From Terriglobales bacterium (GTDB lineage Bacteria > Acidobacteriota > Terriglobia > Terriglobales > Acidobacteriaceae): 64,000 nucleotides of DNA. Position numbers and translations under genes: made by a program. Under the pieces are notes generated by a model. It saw only the letters and a list, made by a program, of their open reading frames with translations, was not told the DNA's origin and searched no databases. The stretch lies in contig DATMAB010000020.1 in the NCBI GenBank assembly GCA_035573675.1, positions 88,408-152,407 of the forward strand, given 5' to 3'. Below, piece by piece: positions 3,405-56,962 of this stretch; the first letter of the stretch is position 1, and every line of letters starts with the position of its first letter.

Positions 3405-4931
3405 ATGAAACTTCAACGGCCCAAACTCATCGATCTGCTGACGGTGCTGCTGCTGGCTGCGCTGAGCGCGGCGGCGCAGGATGTTGCCTCCTTCGAGAAG
3501 CGCATCACGGTGAAGAAGCTGGAGAACGGCCTGACGGTGCTGATCTGCGAGCGTCCCGAAGCGCCCGTGTTCTCCTACTTCACCCACGTGGATGTGGGCG
3601 CCGTGCAGGAAGTGCCGGGCATCACCGGCCTGGCCCACATGTTCGAGCACATGGCCTTCAAGGGCACGGACAAGATCGGCACCAAGGATTACGCCAAAGA
3701 AAAAGCGGCCCTGGAGAAAGTGGAGCAGGCCTTTGCCGCCTATGATCGGGAGCGCCTGAAGCGCGTGGGCCGCGATGACGCCAAGGTCAAGGAACTGGAA
3801 AAAGCCTGGAAGGACGCCATCGCCGAGGCCAACCAGTACGCCTTACCGGACGAGTTCGAAGAGATCATCGAGCGCGAGGGCGGAGTGGGCGTCAACGCTT
3901 TCACGAACTGGGACGAGACCGGCTACTTCTACTCGCTGCCCGTGAACCGGCTCGAGCTGTGGGCCTATCTGGAGTCGGAGCGCTACCTGCATCCCGTGAT
4001 GCGCGAGTTCTACAAAGAGCGCGACGTCGTCTTCGAGGAGCGCCGCATGCGCACCGACAGCCAGCCGGTGGGGAGGCTGGTGGAGCAGTTCCTGGCGGCT
4101 GCGTTCACGGCCCACGGGTATCACCGGCCGGTGGTCGGCTACGCCTCCGACCTGATGTCCTTCTCCGCCACCGATGCGGAGGAGTTCCGCCGCAAGTATT
4201 ACGTTCCGGCGAACATGGTGGTGGCCGTGGTGGGTGACGTCAAAGCGGCGGAGGCTTTGCCCATCATCGAGAAATACTTCGGGAGGCTGCCCAACACACC
4301 CAAGCCTGAGCCGGTGCGCACCCAGGAGCCGCCACAGAACGCGGAGCGCACGGTCATCCTGCGCGACCAGGCGCAGCCGTTTTATCTGGAGGGCTACCAC
4401 CGCCCGGATGTGCTGGATCCCGACGACGTCGTCTACGACGCCATCAGCGACATTCTTTCCAAGGGAAGAACGTCCCGCCTGTACCGCTCGCTGGTGCGGG
4501 ATAAGAAAATCGCCGTGGCCGCCGCCGGCTTCAGTCCGTTCCCCGGAGCGAAGTACCCGCACCTGTTCGCATTCTTCGCGGTGCCCACGCCCGGACATAC
4601 CAACCAGGAGTGCGCGGATGCCATCCACCAGGAGATCGAGCGCCTGAAGACCGAGGACGTGAGCGACGAAGAATTACAGAGCGTCAAGACGCGGGCCAAG
4701 GCCGACCTGATCCGGCAGCTCGACAGCAACCAGGGACTGGCGTTGCAACTGGCCACCTTCGAGCGCCGCTTCGGAGACTGGCGCGAGCTGTTCCGCCAGG
4801 TGGAGCGCATCGAAAAAGTGAGCAAAGCGGACATCCGCCGCGTGGCTAACGCGGTCTTTCGCGACACCAATCGCACCGTGGGGATGATTGAGACGGTGAA
4901 GCCGGCCGCCGCCCCGAAGGGAGGCCAGTAA
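3405..4931 (+). CDS. M16 family (pitrilysin/insulinase-like) zinc peptidase, active-type subunit, secreted
   Basis: It has an N-terminal signal-like segment and the inverted zinc motif HMFEHMAFKG (HxxEH). The downstream glutamate region ERDVVFEERR is present. Confidence 0.85.
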   Translation: MKLQRPKLIDLLTVLLLAALSAAAQDVASFEKRITVKKLENGLTVLICERPEAPVFSYFTHVDVGAVQEVPGITGLAHMFEHMAFKGTDKIGTKDYAKEKAALEKVEQAFAAYDRERLKRVGRDDAKVKELEKAWKDAIAEANQYALPDEFEEIIEREGGVGVNAFTNWDETGYFYSLPVNRLELWAYLESERYLHPVMREFYKERDVVFEERRMRTDSQPVGRLVEQFLAAAFTAHGYHRPVVGYASDLMSFSATDAEEFRRKYYVPANMVVAVVGDVKAAEALPIIEKYFGRLPNTPKPEPVRTQEPPQNAERTVILRDQAQPFYLEGYHRPDVLDPDDVVYDAISDILSKGRTSRLYRSLVRDKKIAVAAAGFSPFPGAKYPHLFAFFAVPTPGHTNQECADAIHQEIERLKTEDVSDEELQSVKTRAKADLIRQLDSNQGLALQLATFERRFGDWRELFRQVERIEKVSKADIRRVANAVFRDTNRTVGMIETVKPAAAPKGGQ

Positions 4932-7090
4932 TGACTCAGCTCAGGCGACTCCGTTCCGTGACGGCGCTCCTGGCCCTCTGCCTGTGGGCCTGCGGGCACG
5001 CTGCCGGCCAGGCCACCGACTGGAAGCAGATCAGCCGGCCGCCGCTGCCTCCGTTCCATCCGCAGCAGCCGGTGCGCGTCGTACTGCCCAACGGCATGGT
5101 GATCTTCCTGCAGGAGGACCATGAACTGCCGCTCATCGAGGGCCAGGCTACAGTCCGCGGCGGCTCGCGCGAGGAGCCCGCGGCCAAGGTCGGCTTGGTC
5201 AGCATCTACGGCGAGGTCTGGCGCACGGGCGGCACCAAGTCCAAAACCGGCGACCAGCTCGATGACTTCCTGGAAGCGCGTGGCGCGCGCGTGGAGAGCG
5301 GAGATGGAGTGGACAGCACCAATCTCTCCTTCTCCTGCCTCAAGGGCGATTTCGACGACGTGTTCGCGATATTCACCGAGCTGCTGCAGCAGCCGGAGTT
5401 CCGAGAAGACAAGATCACACTGGCCAAGACGCAGGAGAACACGGCCATCGCGCGGCGCAATGACAACGTGCAGGGCATCGCCGGCCGCGAGGCCAGCAAG
5501 CTTGGCTATGGGGCGGAAAATCCCTACGCGCGCCACACCGAATATGCCACGGTAGCCGCGGTCACGCGGGACGACCTGCTGAACTGGCACAAGCAGTATG
5601 TCCATCCCAACAACATCATTCTGGGAATCGTCGGCGATTTCGATGCCAAAGCCATGGAAGCCAGGCTGCGCAAAGCCTTTGCCGCCTGGCCGAAAGGACC
5701 GCAGGCCAGGCCGGCTGCCATCGAGTACCAACCGGCCAAGCCGGGCGTGTATTTCGTCGCCAAGGACGATGTGAACCAGAGCGAGATCCGCATGGTCCAC
5801 CTGGGCATCAGGCGCGACAACCCGGACTACTTCGCGGTCGAGGTGATGAACGAAGTGTTCGGCACCAGCGCACTGGCGCGGTTGTTCACCAGCATCCGCT
5901 CGCGCAAGGGCCTGGCCTATGCCGTCGGCGGAGGTGTGCGCAGCGCCTTCGACCATCCCGGGCTCTTCAGCATCACCATGAGCACCAAGAGCAACACCAC
6001 GGTCGAGGCCATTCACGCTCTGTACGAGGAGATCGACAATTTCCTCGGACCCAGGCCGGCTACGGAGGAAGAGCTCAAGCGGGCCAAAGACGGCATCCTG
6101 AACTCCTTCGTCTTCAACTTCGATAGCAAGGGAAAAGTCCTGAGGGAGAGGATGCGGCTGGAATTCTACGGGTACCCCGCCGACTTCCTGGAGCGCTACC
6201 AGGCCGCAATCGAGAAGGTGACTGTGGACGATGTCAACCGCGTCGCCAGGAAATACATTCAGAAAGACAAGCTGGCGGTCCTGGTGGTAGGCAAAGCGGC
6301 GGACTTCGACAAGCCTCTGGCCAGCCTGGGAACCGTGACCGCGCTCGACGTCACCATACCGGAAGCCGGACCCAAGACGCCGGCGGTGGCGGGCTCGAAC
6401 GCGGAGGGCAAGGCGTTGGCAGCCAAGGTGGTGCAGGCTTTGGGCGGGGCCGAGAAGCTGCGCGCCATCAAGGCAATCCGAAGAAAAGGGACCTCTATCA
6501 ACAAGACGCCGCAGGGCGAGATGGCCTTCCGCGAGGAAGGCATCGTGGTGTACCCGGACCGCAGTTGGACGAAAGTCACTCTGCCCATGGGCGAGATGAC
6601 CATTGTCATCTCACCCGAGGCGTCCTTCATGGCCATGGGAGGCATGCCTCCGCGGGAAGTTCCGGGCCCCATGAAGCAGGAGGGCGTCAGCGACATCAAG
6701 CGCGACCTGGTCTTCATCGCCCAGAATGTGGAAAACCCCAAGTTCGTCTTCGCGGCAGCGGGCACGGAGAAAATCGGGGAGACTGAAGCGGCCGTCCTGG
6801 AGATCAACGCCGACGGCACCCCCTTGCGCTGGTATGTCGATCCGCAGAGCGGCAGAGTGTTGCGAGCCGCCTACCGTGCGTCCAGCATGACCGGACCCGT
6901 GGACCGTGTTGAAGACTACTCCGACTGGCGCGAGGTCGACGGGCTGCGCGTGCCCTTTAAATCCAAGTCAACCGACAACGGCGCAGAGGTGGGCTCAAGC
7001 GAGAAGCTGGAACTGGAGGTTAATCCGGTCATCGATCCCAAGCTGTTCGAGAAACCAGCCGAAGCGGCTGCACAACAGCCTTCGAACTGA
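4931..7090 (+). CDS. M16 family peptidase-like protein lacking HxxEH, with an extra C-terminal domain of about 240 aa
   Basis: It overlaps the upstream M16 gene by 1 nt (TAATG) and has a signal peptide. The M16 fold signature region is NGMVIFLQEDHELP, with no HxxEH motif. Residues from about 470 to 719 extend beyond a normal M16 pair. Confidence 0.8.
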   Translation: MTQLRRLRSVTALLALCLWACGHAAGQATDWKQISRPPLPPFHPQQPVRVVLPNGMVIFLQEDHELPLIEGQATVRGGSREEPAAKVGLVSIYGEVWRTGGTKSKTGDQLDDFLEARGARVESGDGVDSTNLSFSCLKGDFDDVFAIFTELLQQPEFREDKITLAKTQENTAIARRNDNVQGIAGREASKLGYGAENPYARHTEYATVAAVTRDDLLNWHKQYVHPNNIILGIVGDFDAKAMEARLRKAFAAWPKGPQARPAAIEYQPAKPGVYFVAKDDVNQSEIRMVHLGIRRDNPDYFAVEVMNEVFGTSALARLFTSIRSRKGLAYAVGGGVRSAFDHPGLFSITMSTKSNTTVEAIHALYEEIDNFLGPRPATEEELKRAKDGILNSFVFNFDSKGKVLRERMRLEFYGYPADFLERYQAAIEKVTVDDVNRVARKYIQKDKLAVLVVGKAADFDKPLASLGTVTALDVTIPEAGPKTPAVAGSNAEGKALAAKVVQALGGAEKLRAIKAIRRKGTSINKTPQGEMAFREEGIVVYPDRSWTKVTLPMGEMTIVISPEASFMAMGGMPPREVPGPMKQEGVSDIKRDLVFIAQNVENPKFVFAAAGTEKIGETEAAVLEINADGTPLRWYVDPQSGRVLRAAYRASSMTGPVDRVEDYSDWREVDGLRVPFKSKSTDNGAEVGSSEKLELEVNPVIDPKLFEKPAEAAAQQPSN

Positions 7091-49139: not shown

Positions 49140-50555
49140 CTATGGTTTCTGGGAGACAGGCTGCGCCTGTGCCCGTAGTTGCTCCAGGATTTGGGAGCCG
49201 AGGTGAGAAACATTGCCCGCGCCCAAGGTGAGGATCATGTCGCCCTCCTGGGCTCGCGACGCAACCGCTGCCGCGGCTTCCGCGAAGGAAGGCGCATAGA
49301 TCGCTTCTCTGCCGCCCTTTTCGCGGATACACTGCGCCAGAGCTTCGCCGGTGACGCCGGGAATGGGGCTTTCGCTGGCGGCGTAGATATCCAGGATGAA
49401 CAGAGAATCAGCCGCCGCGAAGGCGGTGGCGAATTCGTCCAGCAGCAGTTGGGTTCGGGTGTAACGGTGGGGCTGGAAGATGACGTGGATGCGGCCGTAG
49501 CCGCAGGAACGGGCCGCAGCCAGCGTCGCGCGCACCTCGGTGGGATGGTGGCCGTAATCGTCGATCACGGCGACGCCGCGGACGGCGCCACGCAACTGGA
49601 ACCGGCGATCCACGCCGCGAAAGCCTTCCAGCGCGTCACGAATCTGCGCGGACGGGATGTCGAGGCCCACACCGACGGCCACGGCTGCGGTGGCATTCAG
49701 CACATTGTGGGCGCCGGGAACGCGTACGCGGAATTCGCCCAGGTTCTGCCCGCGGTAACGCACGGTGAAGCGGCTCACCGGGCGTTCCTGCACGGTGCCG
49801 GGTTCGACGGCGCCAAGCGTGAGGCAGAAATCAGCATCGTCGCCGGTGCCATAGGTGACCACGCGACGGGAGAGCCGTGGCACCAGCTTGCGCAGATGGC
49901 GGTCGTCCCGGCACAGGATAGCCATGCCGTAGAAGGGCAGGCGCTCGATGAAGTCACGGAAGGCGCGCAGCACGTCCCGCATGTCGCGATAGCAGTCCAT
50001 GTGCTCGCGGTCGAGGTTGGTCACCACGGCGAGGATGGGAGAGAGCTTGAGAAAGGAGCGGTCACTCTCATCGGCTTCGGCCACGAGGTACTGGGATTTG
50101 CCCAGACGGGCGTTAGAGCCCATGGCATCCACGCGTCCGCCGACGACTACCGTGGGATCCAAACCACCTGCGGCCAGAACCGCCGCGACCATGGAAGTGG
50201 TGGTGGTCTTGCCGTGCATGCCGGCGATGGCGATGCCGTACTTCAGGCGCATCAACTCAGCCAGCATCTCCGCGCGCGGGATGACCGGAATGTGATAGCG
50301 GTGCGCTTCCAGCACTTCCGGGTTGTCGGGGGCGATAGCCGAACTGGTGACGACGACTTCGGCACCCTGCACGTTTTCCGCACGATGACCTTCGAGGACG
50401 GTGGCGCCCAGCGTGCGGAGACGCTCGGTCACAGCGGACAGCTTGAGGTCGGAGCCGGAAACCTTGTAACCCAGCGTCAGCAGGACCTCGGCGATGCCAC
50501 TCATGCCGATGCCGCCGATGCCGACAAAATGAACGCGTTGGATGCGAGCGAACGT
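49140..50555 (-). CDS. murC: UDP-N-acetylmuramate--L-alanine ligase MurC; 5' end unresolved
   Basis: Motifs are GMHGKTTTTSM (P-loop) and DESDRSF. The tracked ORF starts at ATG 50504 (MSGIAEV), which is inside the conserved N-terminal motif HFVGIGGIGMSG. The frame stays open up to the TAG at 50568-50570 with no ATG, GTG or TTG. I extended the call to ACG 50555, which has AGGAG 9 nt upstream. See findings. Confidence 0.85.
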   Translation of the reverse strand, partial: TFARIQRVHFVGIGGIGMSGIAEVLLTLGYKVSGSDLKLSAVTERLRTLGATVLEGHRAENVQGAEVVVTSSAIAPDNPEVLEAHRYHIPVIPRAEMLAELMRLKYGIAIAGMHGKTTTTSMVAAVLAAGGLDPTVVVGGRVDAMGSNARLGKSQYLVAEADESDRSFLKLSPILAVVTNLDREHMDCYRDMRDVLRAFRDFIERLPFYGMAILCRDDRHLRKLVPRLSRRVVTYGTGDDADFCLTLGAVEPGTVQERPVSRFTVRYRGQNLGEFRVRVPGAHNVLNATAAVAVGVGLDIPSAQIRDALEGFRGVDRRFQLRGAVRGVAVIDDYGHHPTEVRATLAAARSCGYGRIHVIFQPHRYTRTQLLLDEFATAFAAADSLFILDIYAASESPIPGVTGEALAQCIREKGGREAIYAPSFAEAAAAVASRAQEGDMILTLGAGNVSHLGSQILEQLRAQAQPVSQKP

Positions 50556-50617
50556 AGCTACCAGCTCCTAGCGGCTAGCTTCCAGCTTTGGCTCCTAGCC
50601 ATTGGCTCTCAGCTTAA
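50555..50617. repeat. Degenerate tandem heptamer array (nAGCTnn) at and upstream of the murC 5' end
   Basis: On the + strand the units read TAGCTAC CAGCTCC TAGCGGC TAGCTTC CAGCTTT GGCTCCT AGCCATT GGCTCTC AGCTTAA. The first five units keep AGC in register. Confidence 0.5.
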
Positions 50618-50718
50618 ACCCTCATCAACATAGCCTAAGACATCGCCGGCCACAGGTGGGTCAACTCCGAAGTACCGAAGACTGGGCTACCCCCTACCCC
50701 GTCCAATGGAATCAACCA

Positions 50719-50749
50719 GTTAGGGGGGCAATAATATAGTTGACTAACC
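50719..50749 (+). repeat. Left end of the insertion: direct repeat GTTAGGGG plus inverted repeat IR-L
   Basis: Read directly from the sequence: GTTAGGGG|GGCAATAATATAGTTGACTAACC. Confidence 0.8.
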
Positions 50750-50757
50750 ACGCTCAG

Positions 50758-50793
50758 AATCGGAAGCGCGGTGACAGGGTGCGCGATGGGTGT
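50758..50793 (+). repeat. 36-nt subterminal block, copy 1
   Basis: AATCGGAAGCGCGGTGACAGGGTGCGCGATGGGTGT. It matches 51681-51716 at 33/36 positions. Confidence 0.8.
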
Positions 50794-50808
50794 GTGGCCA
50801 GGCAGTAC

Positions 50809-51648
50809 ATGCGGGTACTCGCCCAGCTCGTGCATCCCGCCGCTGGCCCGGATACTCTGTTCGTTGTGCTTAAGGTGTATTTGGACGAAAGCGGAATTAA
50901 CCGGGATGCGTTCGTCTGTGTGGTGGCTGGGTACGCCGCCAATACCGCCAGATGGAAGAAATTTGAGAAGGACTGGGCCTCGATCCTTAAGCGTTACAGA
51001 GTTGCCGAGTTTCACGCCAAGGACTTCTTCCGTCGAGATGAGGACGGGAATCCTCTGCACGAGCATTACCGACACCTGGGGCGCGACGGGGCAAATGCCT
51101 TCCTGAATGATTTGATAAACGCAATCAACAAGGCCAAGCCCAAAATGATTGGCAAGGCGGTTCTGGTCGAGGACTTTTTCTCGTTCAGCCTAGGGGAGAG
51201 GCGGTATCTGACTGGCGCACAGTACGACCCGACTGCCAAGAAGTTCCTTAGCAGCGGTGCTCCCGAGACGCACTTCCATGTGCCCATGCAGGCTGTCGTA
51301 ATCAATGCGGCCCTGGGGGCGAAGAGGCTCAAAGAGAAGGCCCACTTCGTGTGTGACCGTCAAGACGAATACGCTCCGCTAGTGGTGGAGAGGTTCGCGG
51401 AGATTGCGAAGCGGAATCCCGATTTGCCGCTAGGCGATTTGGTTCACTCCGACAGCAGGGATGTGTGTGCCTTGCAGGCCGCAGATTTGGCTTGCTGGGG
51501 AGCAAGCGTCTACGCCAAGAAACGCTTCAAGAAGAACGAAACGGAGACGGATTATATGGTCCGCCGCCTTCTGGAGCGCGAGGCTGATTTTGAACTGATG
51601 GATGCACGAAAGCTGCGCCTTCTTCTTGAGGGCTTTCATGGGCAATAA
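50809..51648 (+). CDS. DUF3800-family protein
   Basis: It has the N-terminal hallmark KVYLDESG and the C-terminal hallmark LQAADLACW. The start is uncertain: ATG 50809, or GTG 50866/50875 just before YLDESG. The tracked ORF start at 50740 is a TTG inside IR-L. The stop TAA (51646-51648) lies inside the internal IR copy. Confidence 0.75.
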   Translation: MRVLAQLVHPAAGPDTLFVVLKVYLDESGINRDAFVCVVAGYAANTARWKKFEKDWASILKRYRVAEFHAKDFFRRDEDGNPLHEHYRHLGRDGANAFLNDLINAINKAKPKMIGKAVLVEDFFSFSLGERRYLTGAQYDPTAKKFLSSGAPETHFHVPMQAVVINAALGAKRLKEKAHFVCDRQDEYAPLVVERFAEIAKRNPDLPLGDLVHSDSRDVCALQAADLACWGASVYAKKRFKKNETETDYMVRRLLEREADFELMDARKLRLLLEGFHGQ

Positions 51649-51716
51649 TATAGGTGACTAACCAAGCCAGTCCCGCCCAAAATCGGAAGCGCCGTGACAG
51701 GGGACGCGATGGGTGT
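51641..51716 (+). repeat. Internal third copy of the element end: IR-like 23-mer (51641-51663, 22/23 match to IR-L) plus the 36-nt block (51681-51716)
   Basis: GGCAATAATATAGGTGACTAACC ...17 nt... AATCGGAAGCGCCGTGACAGGGGACGCGATGGGTGT. It has the same orientation as the left end. It exactly fills the gap between the convergent stops at 51648 (+) and 51717 (-). Confidence 0.8.
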
Positions 51717-52469
51717 CTACAGAAGTCCAATCTTGAGGCACTCCGCTTTTGTCGCGGCGATGATCCCCGAGACTTTGCGGATAAGAGCGTCCAGTTTAGC
51801 CTCGACTGGTTTGCCTTTCATGATCTCGATTTCCCCGAACGCTACCGCAAAGGAGACGTGTACCTTGTAGCGGATTTTCGTTCCCGGTCTGACGGCAGCG
51901 TATATCAACTCGTCTTTGTCGCCGTCCCATCCGCAGTAGGGGATGCGGAACGGTCCACTCACCTCCATCCGTTCAACGTGAAGCGGCCCAGTGCTCATTC
52001 CGATAGGCACAATCAGGCGGTGCTTCGAAGCATTACAAAGTTCGTTCAATGCCCAAAGGGCATCATCCCCTCCCTTGTAAGGCTTGAAGCTCGCAAAAAG
52101 CGCATGAATCTCCTTCGGGAAATTTTTGCAGGCACTACCCAGGCGGCTTTTGAAGTCAGCTTCCGTAGCGGAGAACGGAAAGTGAACGTTACCAGAATCG
52201 CCGCCAGCAAGCGTAGCAACACTAGAAGCCGCGAGGTCAAGAGCTGCCCGGAGACTCTCCAGGACACCGGAAACTCGGTGGGTCAGGACTTCCGGCAAGG
52301 GTTTAGCGAGTTTGATCTTGTGGAGTTCATAGATTCCTTCGTCATCCATCTCGGTCACGGCAATGTGGGGGTTACTCTTGAGGAATCTGCGACATCTCCC
52401 CTTGAACTGCTTGAAGTCGCGCTTTGCCCACGCGATTCGTTTCCGGGAATCATCGAAGGGTCGCTTCAT
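51717..52469 (-). CDS. Hypothetical protein (250 aa), cargo of the insertion
   Basis: Composition is balanced, Lys/Glu-rich and low in Arg. Codon preference is consistent (AAG, TTC, ATC, GAC). The motif KPYKGGDDALWALNELCNASKHRLIV is present. I prefer this over the Arg/Ser-rich opposite-strand ORF 51654..52556. Confidence 0.65.
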   Translation of the reverse strand: MKRPFDDSRKRIAWAKRDFKQFKGRCRRFLKSNPHIAVTEMDDEGIYELHKIKLAKPLPEVLTHRVSGVLESLRAALDLAASSVATLAGGDSGNVHFPFSATEADFKSRLGSACKNFPKEIHALFASFKPYKGGDDALWALNELCNASKHRLIVPIGMSTGPLHVERMEVSGPFRIPYCGWDGDKDELIYAAVRPGTKIRYKVHVSFAVAFGEIEIMKGKPVEAKLDALIRKVSGIIAATKAECLKIGLL

Positions 52470-52571
52470 GGCATGACCGGAGAAACTGCCACAATGCGCA
52501 CGGGTGACCCAGGCAGGCGGGGCAGTAGCAGCGGATGGCTTCTTGGAGGGGCTTAGGTTTCATCATGGCAC

Positions 52572-52859
52572 CTAGTTCACAGGATCAGTCTCAGCCTTCA
52601 GTCGCAGAATTGCTTGCTCAAGCAAGTGCAGCGCTTGAACAGGATTTTCAAGACTCGCTGAGGAAACTTCGGCTGCGCTATGTCCCTGGAAACGCTGAAC
52701 AGCATCCGCGATTCCAGCCTCTTGAGCAATGCGAAGAAGCGCCCCCATGCCAGCCTTTAGCAGCACGATCTCCCGTTGCTGGTGGAACACAAGCTCAAGC
52801 AGCCGAAGAGTCTCCAGCTTCGATAGAAACATCGGAGGTTGCATCGGAGAGTTCGTCAT
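52572..52859 (-). CDS. Hypothetical small helical protein (95 aa), cargo of the insertion
   Basis: It shows a heptad-like hydrophobic pattern (LSKLETLRLLELVFHQQREIVLLKAGMGALLRIA). The ATG lies about 20 nt inside the element from IR-R. The competing + strand ORF 52535..52861 cannot be excluded. Confidence 0.4.
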   Translation of the reverse strand: MTNSPMQPPMFLSKLETLRLLELVFHQQREIVLLKAGMGALLRIAQEAGIADAVQRFQGHSAAEVSSASLENPVQALHLLEQAILRLKAETDPVN

Positions 52860-52884
52860 GACCCCACACTACACGAAGGGGCAG

Positions 52885-52915
52885 GGTTAGTCAGGTACAT
52901 TATTGCCGTTAGGGG
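52885..52915 (-). repeat. Right end of the insertion: inverted repeat IR-R plus direct repeat GTTAGGGG
   Basis: The + strand reads GGTTAGTCAGGTACATTATTGCC|GTTAGGGG. Confidence 0.8.
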
Positions 52916-53102
52916 CGGAGATCTCGACAGGTCTCGGAATCTAAAGGAGTTACGGGCAAAGTCTCGTCCGCAAAGTACTTAGCTTTCCGAGAATAGAACC
53001 GGACTTATGTTAGCATTCCGTAATTCACCTGTCAAGCAAGAATATCCGATTGAGTCGTCCCAGGAATCGCTTGTTGGGCACCGCTGGAAGGCGGTCCCGG
53101 AT

Positions 53103-54176
53103 TCAACGGCCTGCGGCAGTCATTACTAGGCGCGCGATGGCTCCGGCGGCGTCGTGATGGGCGAGGCGGCGGGCGGCTTCGGACATGGAGCGCAGACGAG
53201 CGCGGTCGGCGAGCAAGTCGCGTACCGTTTCCACCAGGCGATGAGCGGTGAGTTCGGACTGCGGCAACAACACAGCGGCCCCGGCTTTCGACAACGCTTC
53301 GGCGTTGCGATGCTGGTGGTCATCGGCCGCGCGCGGAAAGGGCACGAAGATGGCGGGCCGGCCGGCAGCGGCGACTTCGGCGACGGTGGAGGCGCCGGAG
53401 CGGCACAGCAGCAGGTCGGCCTCAGCGAACGCTTCCCACATGCGCTCGATAAAGCGGGAAACGACGGAGTTGGGGCCGGCGCGCTCGTAGGCCGCAAGCA
53501 CGGCTTCGAAGTCGCGCTCGCCGGTCTGGTGCAGGACGCGCAGACCGGGAATGTTCCTGTTGAGCAAGGCTGCAGCTTCCATCATGACGCGATTGAGCGG
53601 CGCAGCGCCCTGGCTGCCTCCGAAAACCAGGAGCGTAGGCGATCCTGTGCCTTCGCGCGAGCCGAGGCTGAAAAATTCCTTGCGCACGGGCGTGCCGGTG
53701 ATGTGGGCGTTGCGGAAGTGCCGCGCCGTCTCCGGAAACTGCACCGCCGCAGCCGTGACCCAGCGGGCTACGAGGCGGTTGGCAAAACCGGGCACGACGT
53801 TGGATTCGAAAGCAACGCACGGAATGCCGGCCATCACGGCCGCCAGCATGGCGGGACCGGAGGCATATCCGCCCACGCCCAGCACAGCCTGGGCACGGAA
53901 GCTGCGCACCAGGCGTCGCGAACGGAGGATGGCGCGCGGGAGCCCCAGGGATGTTGAAAGACGCGTGGCGAGGGTGACGTTCTTGAGGGGACCGACGTCG
54001 ATCAGTTCGAGGTCAAAACCAGCGGCGGGGACCAGGCGGGTTTCGATGCCCCGGGCGGTGCCGATAAACAAGAGTTCGGCGCCGTGTTCTTCCTTGAGAA
54101 CACGCGCGATAGCCAGAGCGGGGATGACGTGGCCTCCGGTGCCGCCGCCGGCGATAACGATGCGCGGGGTGTCGAT
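53103..54176 (-). CDS. murG: UDP-GlcNAc:lipid I GlcNAc transferase MurG; start codon non-canonical or unresolved
   Basis: The tracked ORF starts at TTG 54071, but the frame is open upstream and encodes IDTPRIVIAGGGTGGHVIPALAIARVL. That segment contains the conserved MurG G-loop. An in-frame TGA lies at 54210-54212, and no ATG, GTG or TTG occurs before 54071. I extended the call to ATC 54176. See findings. Confidence 0.85.
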   Translation of the reverse strand: MDTPRIVIAGGGTGGHVIPALAIARVLKEEHGAELLFIGTARGIETRLVPAAGFDLELIDVGPLKNVTLATRLSTSLGLPRAILRSRRLVRSFRAQAVLGVGGYASGPAMLAAVMAGIPCVAFESNVVPGFANRLVARWVTAAAVQFPETARHFRNAHITGTPVRKEFFSLGSREGTGSPTLLVFGGSQGAAPLNRVMMEAAALLNRNIPGLRVLHQTGERDFEAVLAAYERAGPNSVVSRFIERMWEAFAEADLLLCRSGASTVAEVAAAGRPAIFVPFPRAADDHQHRNAEALSKAGAAVLLPQSELTAHRLVETVRDLLADRARLRSMSEAARRLAHHDAAGAIARLVMTAAGR

Positions 54177-54462
54177 TGGGTGCCGTCCCTTCGGGACTCG
54201 ATTTCGTTCTCATGCTAACCCGGCACTTACGTACCGGGCTATCGAATTGCCGTCGCTTCGCGACTGACGGGTTGCGGCACCCTCCCCTTGCCGGCTCGCC
54301 TACGCTCGCGGCCGGTCGGGCGCAAGTCGTGCACATGGCTCCAGACGGCACGCCTGAAGGCGTGCCCCTCCGAAATCGAGGCTCCTTTGAGGTTTTCCGC
54401 AACCTGTGAAGTCATGCCCTGACACGAACCTCAGCCAGGATCACGGAAAGGCCGAATCAACA
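54177..54462 (-). ncRNA. Hairpin-dense ftsW-murG spacer; candidate structured leader or cis-regulatory RNA, class unknown
   Basis: Five strong local hairpins are present in + coordinates. GTCCC-TTC-GGGAC is at 54185-54197. CCCGGCAC-TTAC-GTACCGGG is at 54219-54238. GTCGC-TTC-GCGAC is at 54252-54264. CCGGCTCGCC...GGCCGG is at 54291-54315. GGCACGCC-TGAA-GGCGTGCC is at 54347-54366. There is also a long-range complement between GGTTGCGG (54270-54277) and CCGCAACC (54397-54404). No credible ORF is present. Confidence 0.45.
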
Positions 54463-55554
54463 TCAATCCGTGTGCTGGGTGATGTTGAGCAGCACACCGA
54501 TGGAGGCCAGGGTGACGAACAGCGAAGACCCGCCGTAGGAAACCAGGGGCAGGGGGATACCTTTGGTGGGCATCAGGCCGAGGACCACACTGATGTTCAG
54601 GAAAGCCTGCACAGCCACCATGGCGGTGATACCGGCAGCGAGCAGGCGGGCAAAGGGCTCCGAGGCGGCGTTGGCGCAGCGAATGCCGCGGTACAGGAAC
54701 ACGGTGATCAGCGCCAGCAGGATGAGCGCGCCGACCAGGCCGGTTTCTTCCGCGGCCACGGCGAAAATGAAGTCGGTATGCGGCTCCGGCAGGTAGAAGA
54801 GCTTCTGCTTCCCTTCCATCAGCCCGGTGCCGAAGACTCCGCCGGCGCCCACGGCAATCAGAGACTGAATGACGTGGAAGCCGCGGCCCAGCGGGTCCGA
54901 GTATGGGTCGAGGAAGGCGAGGATGCGCTCGTAGCGCCATTTGACACGGAACACCAAGAAGTACAGGGGCACGAGCGAGGCCGCCGCGGCGATGCCGAAA
55001 TAGCGCAGGCGCAGTCCGGCGAGGAAGAGAAGAACGGCGGCGATCAGGACCACGACGATGGCGGTGCCGAGATCCGGTTGCTTCACGATGAGCGCGGCGA
55101 ACAGCAGGATGGGGACAGTGGCGGGCAGCAGCGTGTTGCGCCAGTCATCGAGGGCACGCAGGCGTGTTTCCAGGAACCAGGCCAAATACAGGATGAGCGC
55201 GGGCTTGGCCAGTTCCGAAGGCTGGAAGGAGAAAGCGCCCAGGCGGATCCAGCGGTGCGTGTTGGCGGTGCGATCGAGAAAAAAGACCGCAACCAACAGC
55301 AGCGTGGTGAGGCCCAACAGCGAGAACACCACCGCCGGGTGCCGCAAACGGCGGTAATCCACGTGCATGAGCGCGACCATGGCGGCCAGGCCCGCAGTGG
55401 CCCAGGCCATCTGGCGAAAGAGGAAGTGGTAGGGCGACCCGAAGCGCTCCGCGGCCATGACGGCGGAAGCGCTGAACACCATGACCAAGCCGGAGAAAAC
55501 CAGCAGCAACGTGGCTGTGAACAGCGTCTTATCCACGCTGACGCGCTTAGCCAT
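54463..55554 (-). CDS. ftsW: SEDS-family peptidoglycan polymerase / lipid II flippase FtsW
   Basis: The start is at MAKRVSVDKTLF (residue 84 of ORF 54463..55803), overlapping the murD 3' end by 8 nt. It has about 10 TM helices and the motif QPSELAKPAL. Confidence 0.88.
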   Translation of the reverse strand: MAKRVSVDKTLFTATLLLVFSGLVMVFSASAVMAAERFGSPYHFLFRQMAWATAGLAAMVALMHVDYRRLRHPAVVFSLLGLTTLLLVAVFFLDRTANTHRWIRLGAFSFQPSELAKPALILYLAWFLETRLRALDDWRNTLLPATVPILLFAALIVKQPDLGTAIVVVLIAAVLLFLAGLRLRYFGIAAAASLVPLYFLVFRVKWRYERILAFLDPYSDPLGRGFHVIQSLIAVGAGGVFGTGLMEGKQKLFYLPEPHTDFIFAVAAEETGLVGALILLALITVFLYRGIRCANAASEPFARLLAAGITAMVAVQAFLNISVVLGLMPTKGIPLPLVSYGGSSLFVTLASIGVLLNITQHTD

Positions 55555-56962
55555 GCGCCTGGGCGCCTCCCTCACCGGGGATGGTAGCGGCGGCTGGGCC
55601 TTTGGCGCGGGCCTCCAGCGCGGCCACGGCTTCCTTGAAGACCCGGCCACGGTGCTCGTAGTTCTGGAACTGGTCGAAGCTGGCGCAGGCCGGGGCGAGC
55701 AGCACGATCTCGCCGGGTGAGGCGGCTTCGGCGGCGCGGCGAACAGCGTTTTCCAGGGTCTCGGCGCGGAGGACGTCGGCCGCCCCTGCGATCTGGCGCT
55801 CAATCTTCTCCGCGGCTGCGCCGATGGTATAGACGCGGCGGGCGCGCTCCTTTAAAAGCGGAGCGAGCACGGAGTAGTCGCTGCCCTTATCCTTGCCGCC
55901 CAGGATGATGTGGATGCCGCCGGGGAAAGACTCCAGCGCCTTGATGGCGGCATCGACGTTGGTGGCCTTGGAGTCGTTGTAGAACTCGACGCCGTTGAGC
56001 GTGGCCACGTACTCCAGGCGGTGCTCGACCGCCTTGAACTCGGAGACGGCGCTGGCCACGCGCCGCGGCTCGGCGCTCACGATGCGGCCGCAGCAGGCCG
56101 CCGCCAGCACGTTTTCCAGATTGTGCGCCCCCTTGAGGGGAATGCCGGAGACGGGCATGATCTCCTGCCGGTCGTTCTCGTCATCGCGCCACCAGATCTT
56201 GCCGTCGGCGGCCCAGGCGCCGGCTTCGACTTCGCTCTTGCGGCTGAACCAGCGCACCCGCGCGCGCGTCTTCCTGGCCAGATCGCGGCAGGTGGGGTCG
56301 TCGAAGTTAAGCACCGCGAAGTCGCTTTCCTTCTGGTTCTCGAAGATACGGGCCTTGGCCGCCACGTAGTTTTCGAAGCTACGGTGGCGGTCGAGATGGT
56401 CGGGCGAGACGTTGAGCACTACCGCGATTTCGGGATGAAAGCTGTGGATGGTCTCGAGCTGGAAGCTGGAAATCTCGAGAACAACGTAGGTGTCTGACGT
56501 GCAGTCCGCGACCAGGGAAATGGCCGGGGTTCCGATGTTGCCGCCGACCAGGGTCTCGTAGCCGCCCCAGGAGATCACTTCCCCGGTGAGGGCGGTGGTG
56601 GTGGTCTTGCCGTTGGAGCCCGTGATGGCGACGATGTGTCCGGCGAGGAAGCGCGAAGCCAGCTCGACCTCACCGATCACGGGAACCCCCAGGGCGCGGG
56701 CCTGCTCGAGTTGGGGCACGTCCACGGGCACGCCGGGACTGACCACGATGAGGTCCTGGTCGCGGAAGGTGCGCTCGCCGTGGCCGCCGGCCTCGACGGC
56801 GATGCCGGCATCGAGCAGGGCGGGGATTTCCTGGCGCAGTTCCTCCTCAGTCTTGGCGTCGCTCACGGTGACGCGCGCCCCGCGGGCCTTCAGGAACAAG
56901 GCTGAGGCCACGCCCGACTTGCCCAGGCCGACGACGAGGATGCGTTGGTTGTTAACGTCCAC
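55547..56962 (-). CDS. murD: UDP-N-acetylmuramoylalanine--D-glutamate ligase MurD
   Basis: It has a GTG start and the motifs ILVVGLGKSGVA and ITGSNGKTTTTAL. Confidence 0.92.
   Translation of the reverse strand: MDVNNQRILVVGLGKSGVASALFLKARGARVTVSDAKTEEELRQEIPALLDAGIAVEAGGHGERTFRDQDLIVVSPGVPVDVPQLEQARALGVPVIGEVELASRFLAGHIVAITGSNGKTTTTALTGEVISWGGYETLVGGNIGTPAISLVADCTSDTYVVLEISSFQLETIHSFHPEIAVVLNVSPDHLDRHRSFENYVAAKARIFENQKESDFAVLNFDDPTCRDLARKTRARVRWFSRKSEVEAGAWAADGKIWWRDDENDRQEIMPVSGIPLKGAHNLENVLAAACCGRIVSAEPRRVASAVSEFKAVEHRLEYVATLNGVEFYNDSKATNVDAAIKALESFPGGIHIILGGKDKGSDYSVLAPLLKERARRVYTIGAAAEKIERQIAGAADVLRAETLENAVRRAAEAASPGEIVLLAPACASFDQFQNYEHRGRVFKEAVAALEARAKGPAAATIPGEGGAQAHG

Follow-up and report, generated by a model that had tools for sequence, protein, structure and literature searches.

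A probable non-autonomous, cargo-carrying IS1595-family derivative with a third, internal end between murG and murC of a Terriglobales bacterium

The DNA analysed here, a stretch of 64 kb from a Terriglobales bacterium to which we refer as the window, carries murG and murC on its minus strand, and an insert of 2.2 kb lies between these two genes. The features of the insert and of its flanks are as follows, in the order of their coordinates.

49140-50562, minus strand: murC, the downstream flanking gene; taken from its first canonical ATG, the reading frame reaches 50504, and homology extends upstream of it
50719-50726, no strand: left copy of the 8-bp target-site duplication, GTTAGGGG, read directly and identical to 52908-52915
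50727-50749, plus strand: w1, the outer left terminal inverted repeat, GGCAATAATATAGTTGACTAACC
50750-50793, plus strand: subterminal part of w1, a direct repeat with 51664-51716, with a -10-like CAGAAT and the motif GTGACAGGG at 50771-50779
50809-51648, plus strand: DUF3800 gene, 279 aa, from an ATG at 50809, with an alternative GTG at 50866
51641-51716, plus strand: w2, an internal third end (inverted repeat plus subterminal sequence), with the repeat GGCAATAATATAGGTGACTAACC and the motif GTGACAGGG at 51694-51702
51717-52469, minus strand: gene of the 250-aa passenger (p250 family), for which there is no Pfam model
52515-52556, minus strand: vestige of an IS1595-family transposase gene, ATGATGAAACCTAAGCCCCTCCAAGAAGCCATCCGCTGCTAC, which reads M(M)KPKPLQEAIRCY; the deletion junction comes next
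52572-52859, minus strand: 95-aa ORF, matching in position an 81-aa ORF found ahead of the transposase gene in L096, an autonomous relative
52885-52907, minus strand: w3, the right terminal inverted repeat, GGCAATAATGTACCTGACTAACC, the transposase-proximal end
52908-52915, no strand: right copy of the target-site duplication, GTTAGGGG, read directly
53103-54176, minus strand: murG, the upstream flanking gene

A previous sequence-only reading had proposed that 23-bp inverted repeats, matching at 20/23 positions, and an 8-bp duplication mark a classical transposition footprint around an interior of lower GC content, and each of these points is borne out. The two outer repeats, w1 and the inverted w3, agree at 20 of 23 positions and delimit a transposed segment of 2,181 bp (50727-52907); the duplication is exactly 8 bp long, as the next base differs both outward and inward. 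GC content is 0.63-0.69 in the mur genes on either side and falls to 0.53-0.575 within the element. The earlier reading had overlooked a third copy of the 23-mer, which lies in direct orientation at 51641-51663 with one mismatch; the end to which it belongs, w2, fills the interval where the DUF3800 gene and the 250-aa gene converge. From the repeats, the w1 and w2 copies extend into a direct repeat of 68/77 nt (62/68 positions identical, plus a 9-nt indel), and w2 also pairs with 52880-52907 as a 28-nt inverted repeat (82%). This arrangement goes well beyond chance. With up to three mismatches the 23-mer occurs three times in the 64-kb window and not once in 100 dinucleotide-preserving shuffles, while 200 shuffles of 50500-53100 yielded three inverted pairs of at least 20/23 in total, none with an 8/8 flanking duplication, as against two such pairs in the real sequence, one of them with the 8/8 duplication. 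Together with the 45 related elements described below, these observations confirm that a genuine transposon insertion of 2.2 kb lies between the two mur genes.

Because of the insertion, murC is cut off from promoters further upstream in this essential operon, which may affect its expression. Nevertheless, to call the murG-murC junction normally contiguous, as had been done, overstates the case for this lineage: the spacer would measure ~351 nt even without the element, relatives have spacers of 40 nt (L100 and L101) or an unrelated one of 574 nt (L099), and one relative carries a toxin-antitoxin pair between ftsW and murG. The junctions of L099 and L100 are devoid of the genes of the element. 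The proposed search for an empty site (predicted to read ...AATCAACCAGTTAGGGGCGGAGATC..., also given as ...GGAATCAACCAGTTAGGGGCGGAGATCTCG...) recovered none, neither in a metagenome scan with a 28-nt reconstruction (0 matches) nor among the closest MurC relatives; in the closest of these (L098, 89% identity in murC), 19 nt separate the end of the contig from the insertion point. The exact MurC protein was seen at the window locus only, and a single copy of the exact composite is known; a separate Logan assembly, L087, holds the element in an identical arrangement.

Copies of the repeats with other 8-bp flanks, a prediction of the sequence-only reading, do exist at the level of a family. A scan of the genome collection with the pattern GGCAATAATRTANNTGACTAACC (the family ends can also be written GGCAATAAT...ACC) matched 86 loci in other genomes, mostly of Acidobacteriota/Terriglobia, at 45 of which the ends form inverted pairs spaced 482-3,987 bp apart. 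Perfect 8-bp duplications flank 40 of the 45 pairs and comprise 38 distinct sequences, whereas the next 8 bp outward, taken as a control, are never identical. All pairs but one (44/45) enclose a homologue of a ~320-aa transposase that matches PF12762 DDE_Tnp_IS1595 (5.5e-37), PF12760 Zn_ribbon_IS1595 (3.2e-14) and the NCBIfam model NF033547 transpos_IS1595 (170.6 bits, cut-off 75), and that in this Acidobacteriota group is at most ~41% identical to annotated plasmid-borne IS1595 transposases. Duplications of 8 bp, a zinc finger and a DDE domain are characteristic of the IS1595 family (PMC8101967). The ends in the window differ by 0-3 mismatches from the 23-bp ends of the 44 transposase-enclosing elements, and some autonomous members have ends identical to w1, for example the transposase-proximal ends of L016 and L056 and the distal end of L026. 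The motif GTGACAGGG, present in w1 and w2, is typical of the distal end of the family and occurs in 15 of the 44 transposase-distal ends of the relatives. A second metagenome scan, with a lineage-specific subterminal pattern, returned two short contigs only, each with one element end. The failure to find an empty site is all that speaks for the notion that the repeats arose by chance or serve regulation in the spacer, with the three genes as its ancestral residents; given the shuffle tests, the occurrence of 45 related elements elsewhere, each at a different site in another genome, the drop in GC within the element, and the L099 and L100 junctions that lack these genes, this notion is almost certainly wrong.

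The element was thought to contain no known transposase, which does not hold. The same repeats enclose an IS1595 transposase in 44 of 45 relatives, and about 13 codons of such a gene, overlooked in the earlier reading, are still present in the window. The 50 nt from 52581 to 52532 are 86% identical to the junction in L096 between the stop of the small ORF and the transposase start, and the vestige encodes MKPKPLQEAIRCY, to be compared with MKPRTLQEAIRYF at the N-terminus of the L096 transposase. Beyond codon ~13, the alignment to L096 resumes ~55 nt upstream of the p250 start; the p250 gene itself is 72% identical in nucleotides to the L096 element over 716 nt, and the first 57 nt of w3 are 79% identical to the L096 transposase-proximal end. 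On this alignment, the segment 51641-52907, hereafter unit B, proves to be an L096-like derivative from which ~1.1 kb, with the transposase gene, has been deleted. The window element therefore has the inverted repeats and the 8-bp duplication of the IS1595 family without encoding a transposase with the Zn_ribbon_IS1595 and DDE_Tnp_IS1595 domains, and we consider it a non-autonomous derivative rather than an insertion sequence proper because only these ~13 codons remain.

The protein identified earlier as DUF3800 indeed belongs to this family (Pfam PF12686, E 3e-9, 38.2 bits against a cut-off of 21) and carries the DE (YLDESG) and QxxD (QAAD) motifs defined for it (PMC7736814). Its gene is also called at 279 aa in L087, is full length when compared with DUF3800 passengers such as that of L046, and has its stop codon within the inverted repeat w2; the protein gave no sequence match to solved structures. 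Across the related elements, DUF3800 is found as a passenger in seven and p250 homologues in 14. The p250 family comprises more than 9,000 clusters and resembles no solved fold, and the window protein has no match in Pfam, PHROG, PADLOC or NCBIfam; by tblastn, nothing was found in phage or plasmid collections. Its structure model is confident (pLDDT 87) but has a best PDB fold match of E 0.18, and its sole structural match is an unnamed viral protein (A0A514TZW7, E 4e-10). The nearest p250 homologues, P0002 (66%) and P0005 (62%), adjoin IS1595 transposase genes, and the exact window protein was seen at the murG-murC locus only. A strict association of p250 with insertion sequences can be dismissed, as the homologues P0003, P0008, P0009 and P0010 stand alone and lack inverted repeats in their vicinity. 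We also rejected an assignment of p250 to the HEPN ribonucleases because the histidine of the motif is absent in the window subfamily (LRAALDL versus Rx4-6H); the best HEPN structures reached a probability of at most ~0.1 and a TM-score of 0.29. A search of 5.8 billion proteins with the 95-aa ORF returned only the ORF itself, annotated as VNK82_09905. It is coding-like in its GC content by codon position (0.71/0.36/0.52) and has no significant similarity to the 81-aa ORF of L096 or the 93-aa ORF of L097. At w3, a promoter-like CTGACT-17-TAGTGT is directed into this ORF.

Two explanations had been offered for the missing transposase: mobilisation in trans of a non-autonomous cargo element, or mobilisation by one of the uncharacterised proteins. 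The best candidate for a transposase of a new type would be the DUF3800 protein, which lies directly inside an end in the window, the usual position of the transposase gene, and belongs to a family reported to be RNase H-like with acidic DE and QxxD motifs (PMC7736814, PMC10910872). However, DUF3800 is a passenger alongside the IS1595 transposase in seven autonomous relatives, most members of the family move without it, and it is likewise found at loci that are not transposons, namely those of retron type VII and those linked to Cas12a (PMC7736814, PMC13594972). In addition, the inverted repeats and the 8-bp duplication are of the IS1595 type, and the element holds the remains of a deleted IS1595 transposase gene. 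A role of a cargo protein as transposase is thus extremely unlikely, and it is superfluous as an explanation, since both DUF3800 and p250 ride beside an IS1595 transposase in autonomous relatives. Of the two explanations, it is the first that is supported.

Immediately left of w2 stands the 8-mer CTTTCATG (51633-51640). In a position matrix derived from the 40 duplications of the family it scores 5.84 bits, a value at the 99.95th percentile of the 8-mers in the window, and it is thus a nearly ideal target; unit B probably inserted here, in the 3' end of the DUF3800 gene, in an earlier, nested event. As a target, GTTAGGGG is GC-rich and atypical for the family (70th percentile). In the scenario that we propose, unit B would have arisen from an L096-like element by loss of ~1.1 kb with the transposase gene, retaining w3, the 95-aa ORF, 13 codons from the start of the transposase gene, p250 as its passenger and w2 as its distal end. 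Unit B, or its intact ancestor, would have entered CTTTCATG at the DUF3800 3' end of a second family member with w1 as its distal end, and a transposase could then have paired w1 with w3 and moved all the DNA in between. This order of events is inferred from one comparison, that with L096, and from the target-site score. Three ends could also have resulted from two independent insertions, with a DUF3800 element and a 250-aa element each entering the spacer, and back-to-back insertions are indeed known in the family (L054). Yet GTTAGGGG flanks w1 and w3 rather than w2 and w3, CTTTCATG differs from GTTAGGGG by 5 mismatches, and a separate DUF3800 element would have no right-hand inverted repeat upstream of 51641. 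Moreover, CTTTCATG lies within the DUF3800 reading frame, and the junction was therefore formed in the DUF3800 gene and not in the spacer. Two neighbouring insertions are thus very unlikely.

We conclude that 50727-52907 is in all likelihood a non-autonomous, cargo-carrying derivative of the IS1595 family, a mobile insertion cassette with a nested-composite history. The repeats with their duplication, the family membership of the ends, the transposase vestige with its deletion and the homology of the cargo to known passengers are established. As its own transposase gene is lost, the element would have been moved by a transposase made elsewhere. An IS1595-type enzyme (N-terminal zinc ribbon plus DDE domain) from an intact member would bind 50727-50749 and 52885-52907 and place the 2,181-bp segment in the murG-murC spacer, where repair of the staggered cuts would generate the 8-bp duplication GTTAGGGG. 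It could be argued that the element transposed in this way but is now a stranded fossil, immobile in a genome with no cognate transposase left. No transposase homologue is present across the 64-kb window, one copy of the composite is known, and in w3 a position that hardly varies among the ends of the family is substituted (A10G). On the other hand, the duplication is perfect and intact elements have ends that are the same as w1; moreover, the family is common across Terriglobia, and the transposase search covered only these 64 kb of the genome. We regard immobility as a substantial possibility, if the less probable outcome.

To our knowledge, this abundant IS1595 group of soil Acidobacteriota is undescribed. 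Almost every member bears 1-3 kb of swapped cargo, and besides DUF3800 and p250 the passengers include DUF4145, a PIN-like domain with DUF433, and a methylase fused to an Mrr domain. One could imagine that the choice of passengers is not random and that the group specialises in carrying small modules for conflict or maintenance. We consider this unlikely; in its favour, DUF3800, p250 and other passengers recur, and a conserved subterminal motif, CCGTGACAGGG, is located at a predicted inward transcription start. The motif might then be the sign of an operator, or of an RNA derived from the end, that acts with the cargo; the RNA idea loosely resembles TnpB and its omega RNA in IS200/IS605, as well as the non-coding RNAs reported beside DUF3800 genes. 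The motif is not specific to DUF3800 cargo, the sequence 3' of it shows no conservation across 17 ends, and a search of 50300-53300 with Rfam models, including DUF3800-associated motifs, at E up to 1 gave a single, spurious match within murC. In any case, known biology, a deletion derivative of IS1595 moved in trans, can explain a transposase-less footprint, and the element offers a dissectable example of how a cassette may form, from internal deletion to nested insertion to alternative ends. These observations should help in annotating metagenome-assembled genomes, in which such cargo genes are labelled 'hypothetical', and provide a lead on the functions of DUF3800 and of the 250-aa family.

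Several known systems resemble the element in part. Passenger-gene elements of the IS1595 family presumably correspond to the ISNwi1+ and ISPna2+ subgroups of ISfinder, and the present group may belong to the ISNwi1 subgroup, judging by an inverted-repeat consensus of ggnnatTAT for the latter. IS1595 elements with passenger genes have been termed 'transporter IS' (Siguier, Gagnevin and Chandler, 2009, as cited in PMC3129680). They share with our elements the 8-bp duplication, inverted repeats starting with GG, a zinc ribbon and DDE_Tnp_IS1595 domain in the autonomous relatives, and passenger genes that take up ~1-3 kb from the transposase gene to the distal end; in contrast, the window copy has 13 codons in place of a transposase gene, three ends and two stacked passenger modules. 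Closer in structure is the mobile insertion cassette MIC231 of Bacillus cereus (De Palmenaer et al., 2004, as cited in PMC3129680 and PMC3281130), in which insertion-sequence ends and a target duplication surround passengers without a transposase gene and mobilisation is presumed to occur in trans. The window element has this same structure, although the parent family of MIC231 is IS231/IS4 and not IS1595, and here the origin by deletion is directly visible and an extra internal end provides two alternative left ends. MITEs, too, are non-autonomous deletion derivatives that keep their inverted repeats and duplication, as does a 482-bp member of the family without a transposase gene and with a perfect duplication (L027), but the window element is 2.2 kb long and contains three ORFs. 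As in composite transposons, the outer ends of two element copies would jointly move the intervening DNA; here, however, single ends and not two complete copies surround the cargo. Finally, an analogy may be drawn with TnpB/IscB of IS200/IS605, in that a recurrent passenger with a nuclease fold (DUF3800) lies beside a conserved, end-proximal non-coding motif, except that nothing here indicates a guide RNA or a maintenance role.

Direct reading of the sequence bears out the repeat layout proposed in the sequence-only reading for the 2,181-bp element (50727-52907) between murG and murC, in which terminal inverted repeats are flanked by a duplication of exactly 8 bp.

Features of the element and its surroundings (window positions)
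49140-50504, minus strand: murC, flanking gene
50719-50726: left copy of the target-site duplication, GTTAGGGG
50727-50749: w1, outer left terminal inverted repeat, GGCAATAATATAGTTGACTAACC, directly after the left GTTAGGGG
52885-52907: w3, right end, inverted copy matching w1 at 20/23 positions
52908-52915: right copy of the duplication, a second GTTAGGGG, directly after w3
53103-~54176, minus strand: murG, flanking gene
54463-55803, minus strand: ftsW, flanking gene

The inverted repeats and duplication are not due to chance, because shuffled sequences produced neither copies of the 23-mer (three in the window with up to 3 mismatches, 0 in 100 shuffles) nor the complete arrangement: across 200 shuffles of 50500-53100, inverted pairs matching at 20/23 or better turned up three times, never with an 8/8 duplication. 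GC content is indeed lower inside the element (0.53-0.575 vs 0.63-0.69 in the flanking genes), and an independent Logan assembly (L087) contains the identical arrangement.

The absence of any known transposase, which had puzzled the sequence-only reading, is explained by the membership of these ends in an IS1595-type group. When 185,579 species-representative genomes were scanned once for the pattern GGCAATAATRTANNTGACTAACC, 86 loci matched, nearly all in genomes of Acidobacteriota/Terriglobia, with a minority in Gemmatimonadota, Planctomycetota, Binatota, Patescibacteria and others. Relaxed matching inside 8-kb blocks around these loci gave 45 inverted pairs with a spacing of 482-3,987 bp. 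At the level of the family, other copies with different 8-bp flanks exist: 40 of the 45 pairs are flanked by a perfect 8-bp duplication, with 38 distinct sequences, and the adjacent 8 bp outward, taken as a control, match in 0 pairs. The duplications are AT-rich (37% GC), with a CTTnnnAG-like preference.

Forty-four of the 45 related elements contain a homologue of a ~320-aa protein matching PF12762 DDE_Tnp_IS1595 (5.5e-37), PF12760 Zn_ribbon_IS1595 (3.2e-14) and NCBIfam NF033547 transpos_IS1595 (170.6 bits, cut-off 75), and these matches identify the predicted family transposase as IS1595-type. The IS1595 family is characterized by duplications of 8 bp together with a zinc finger at the N-terminus and a DDE domain at the C-terminus; in the Merlin elements, which are related to it and occur in eukaryotes, the inverted repeats begin with GG (PMC8101967). 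Identity to the closest annotated plasmid-borne IS1595 transposases does not exceed ~41%, so that the group forms a divergent branch of the family. Read by eye, autonomous copies have a -35-like TTGACT in the inverted repeat, ~17 nt from a -10-like hexamer located immediately 5' of the transposase start codon. The start of the inverted repeat, GGCAATAAT, presumably resembles the ISfinder consensus of the ISNwi1 subgroup. Many autonomous elements also carry, antisense and directly past the transposase stop, a small conserved ORF of 60-80 aa with the motif EY..FE.AL..VLSVSH..IK..LDAEK (L033 3375-3596, minus strand; L026 2486-2701, minus strand; L068 5489-5785, plus strand; ~20 other members), which has no match in Pfam or NCBIfam and is not present in the window element.

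No transposase homologue was found anywhere in the 64-kb window. We aligned the right part of the element (52907->51641, minus strand; hereafter unit B) with L096, the autonomous element that carries the closest 250-aa homologue (P0002, 66% identity).

Blocks aligned between unit B and L096
Block 1: first 57 nt from the w3 tip; transposase-proximal end of L096; 79%
Block 2: 52581-52532; stop of the 81-aa upstream ORF and transposase start of L096; 86%
Block 3: 716 nt of the 250-aa gene; its L096 homologue; 72%

In the window, block 2 reads TAG..ATGATGAAACCTAAGCCCCTCCAAGAAGCCATCCGCTGCTAC, translating to M(M)KPKPLQEAIRCY, and the L096 transposase begins with MKPRTLQEAIRYF. A remnant of the transposase gene, overlooked in the sequence-only reading, is located at ~52556-52515 on the minus strand. 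Past transposase codon ~13, the window resumes ~55 nt 5' of the 250-aa gene start; ~1.1 kb has therefore been deleted, and with it the remainder of the transposase gene. The same alignment establishes w3 as the transposase-proximal end and the internal end w2 (51641-51716) as the distal one. The 95-aa ORF of the window is the positional counterpart of the L096 81-aa ORF; no similarity between the two was detected, and the 95-aa ORF is an orphan.

The end w2 begins with a third copy of the 23-mer (51641-51663, direct orientation, 1 mismatch), likewise overlooked previously. Copies 1 and 2 lengthen to a 68/77-nt direct repeat, identical at 62/68 positions plus a 9-nt indel, and both contain GTGACAGGG (50771-79 and 51694-702). 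Copy 2 exactly occupies the gap between the convergent DUF3800 and 250-aa genes, whose stop codons lie at 51646-48, within the repeat, and at 51717-19. The conserved motif at these two positions, CCGTGACAGGG(C), occurs in 15 of 44 autonomous relatives irrespective of cargo, in the distal ends of L006, L008, L012, L016, L036, L038, L045, L046, L049, L050, L053, L056, L064, L079 and L080. It lies 44-52 nt inside the transposase-distal tip (74 nt in L016) and ~8 nt downstream of a -10-like hexamer; 3' of it, no conservation was seen across the relatives' distal ends. An indel (GGGC vs GGCAGG) argues against coding, and the motif may serve as an operator, mark the start of transcription or be recognized by the transposase or a host factor. 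Two relatives with DUF6941 cargo, L006 and L036, have in common a non-coding stretch ~50-290 nt inside the distal end, with repeated TTTCGCC ... TAATTGCG between motif and gene, which may represent a leader or small RNA.

How did a three-ended element arise? Its left part, w1 with the inward-reading DUF3800 gene, resembles the distal part of family members such as L075, L029 and L082. The 8 bp directly left of w2, CTTTCATG, fall within the DUF3800 reading frame and, scored on a position matrix of the family duplications, reach the 99.95th percentile among the 8-mers of the window; DUF3800 is essentially full length. Two separate insertions at the murG-murC site can be dismissed, since the duplication borders w1 and w3, not w2 and w3. 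A nested history in three steps is probably the simplest. Unit B, or its intact ancestor, would first have entered the DUF3800 cargo of a different family member at CTTTCATG; its transposase gene would then have been lost by deletion; finally, a transposase supplied in trans would have paired w1 with w3 and carried the 2,181-bp segment to GTTAGGGG. There are precedents within the family. L027 (7305-7786), a 482-bp member without a transposase gene and with a perfect duplication (CAAATTTC), is thus non-autonomous too, the second such derivative; its 95-aa ORF is homologous to a passenger of L053. L054 exhibits back-to-back insertions, the next element end (7006-) beginning 8 bp past the end of the first (4882-6997).

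Without the element, the murG-murC spacer would measure ~351 nt; it is 40 nt in L100 and L101 and 574 nt, unrelated, in L099. L100 (1855-2333) and L101 (2418-2896), with 78% MurC identity, have two genes between ftsW and murG, one of 57 aa and one for a ParE toxin, so that the dcw cluster of this lineage tolerates small accessory insertions. Given the variable spacers and this ParE-type toxin-antitoxin pair, the junction is a permissive intergenic site in the lineage. No empty site was recovered among the junctions of MurC relatives or in a metagenome scan. Past the murG stop and before the element lies a promoter-like TTGACA-17-TAACAT (53035-53007, minus strand), which has a TG upstream and is now 2.2 kb from murC, with the element between. 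The 95-aa and 250-aa genes are co-directional with the operon, DUF3800 being opposed. The element may affect murC expression. A weaker hybrid promoter-like site (52899-52927, minus strand), with its -35 in the flank and its -10 inside w3, reads into the element. Just 5' of murC lies an imperfect 25-nt tandem repeat (50564-50615; GCTCCTAGCGGCTAGCTTCCAGCTT / GCTCCTAGCCATTGGCTCTCAGCTT), and L098 has a similar AGCTAGRAGC-rich stretch. Neither murC (50505-50568) nor murG (54071-54212) has a canonical start 5' of its essential N-terminal glycine-rich motif. ACG replaces the TTG start of relatives in murC, as in the 89%-identical L098, and the first ATG (50504) would drop the GIGGIG motif. Homology of murG begins at 54164 (RIVIAGGGTGGH); after the stop at 54212-10 there is no ATG/GTG/TTG before 54071, and ATC stands at 54176-74. 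These starts are either non-canonical or assembly errors.

The DUF3800 protein matches PF12686 and has the DE and QxxD motifs of its family. This family is reported to adopt an RNase H-like fold and has been connected with retron type VII, with Cas12a-associated loci and mobile elements, and with a group of non-coding RNA motifs in its neighbourhood (PMC7736814, PMC10910872, PMC13594972, PMC5737381). The 250-aa protein, VNK82_09900 in the NCBI metagenome-assembled genome of a Terriglobales bacterium from which the window derives, belongs to a family of 9,431 clusters (50% identity, E <=1e-3; 4,184 at E <=1e-10), and no Pfam model matches any of 14 tested members. Its structure model is confident (pLDDT 87, pTM 0.82); a PDB fold search gave nothing significant (best E 0.18), and one unnamed viral protein is a structural match (E 4e-10, TM 0.69). 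A HEPN identity was rejected, the window subfamily lacking the Rx4-6H histidine. Nor is the family restricted to insertion sequences, since four homologues stand alone and lack inverted repeats in their vicinity. One solitary homologue, P0009 (L104/L105 2864-3412, minus strand; 43% identity), is divergent from an adjoining Y1_Tnp gene for an IS200/IS605-type or REP-associated tyrosine transposase, and no IS1595 ends were found near it. Recurrent passengers of the group are the 250-aa family (14/45 elements) and DUF3800 (7/45). Others are DUF433 with a PIN-like protein, DUF4145, DUF6941, a histidine-kinase-like ATPase, an N6/N4 DNA methylase fused to an Mrr-type nuclease domain and, as a weak match, a PBECR2 nuclease; by its annotation, this cargo looks like defence or addiction functions.

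The interest of these observations lies in an IS1595 group of Acidobacteriota that swaps its cargo and has apparently not been described, and also in the 250-aa family, which is large and unannotated, and the subterminal motif. Mobile insertion cassettes and passenger-carrying IS1595 elements are both established (PMC3129680, with reference to De Palmenaer 2004 and Siguier 2009). Judged from its sequence, our element appears to act as a mobile insertion cassette does, its origin being an IS1595-family element with passengers: it has the defining ends, duplication and a transposase vestige, and departs only in encoding no transposase, which makes it non-autonomous.
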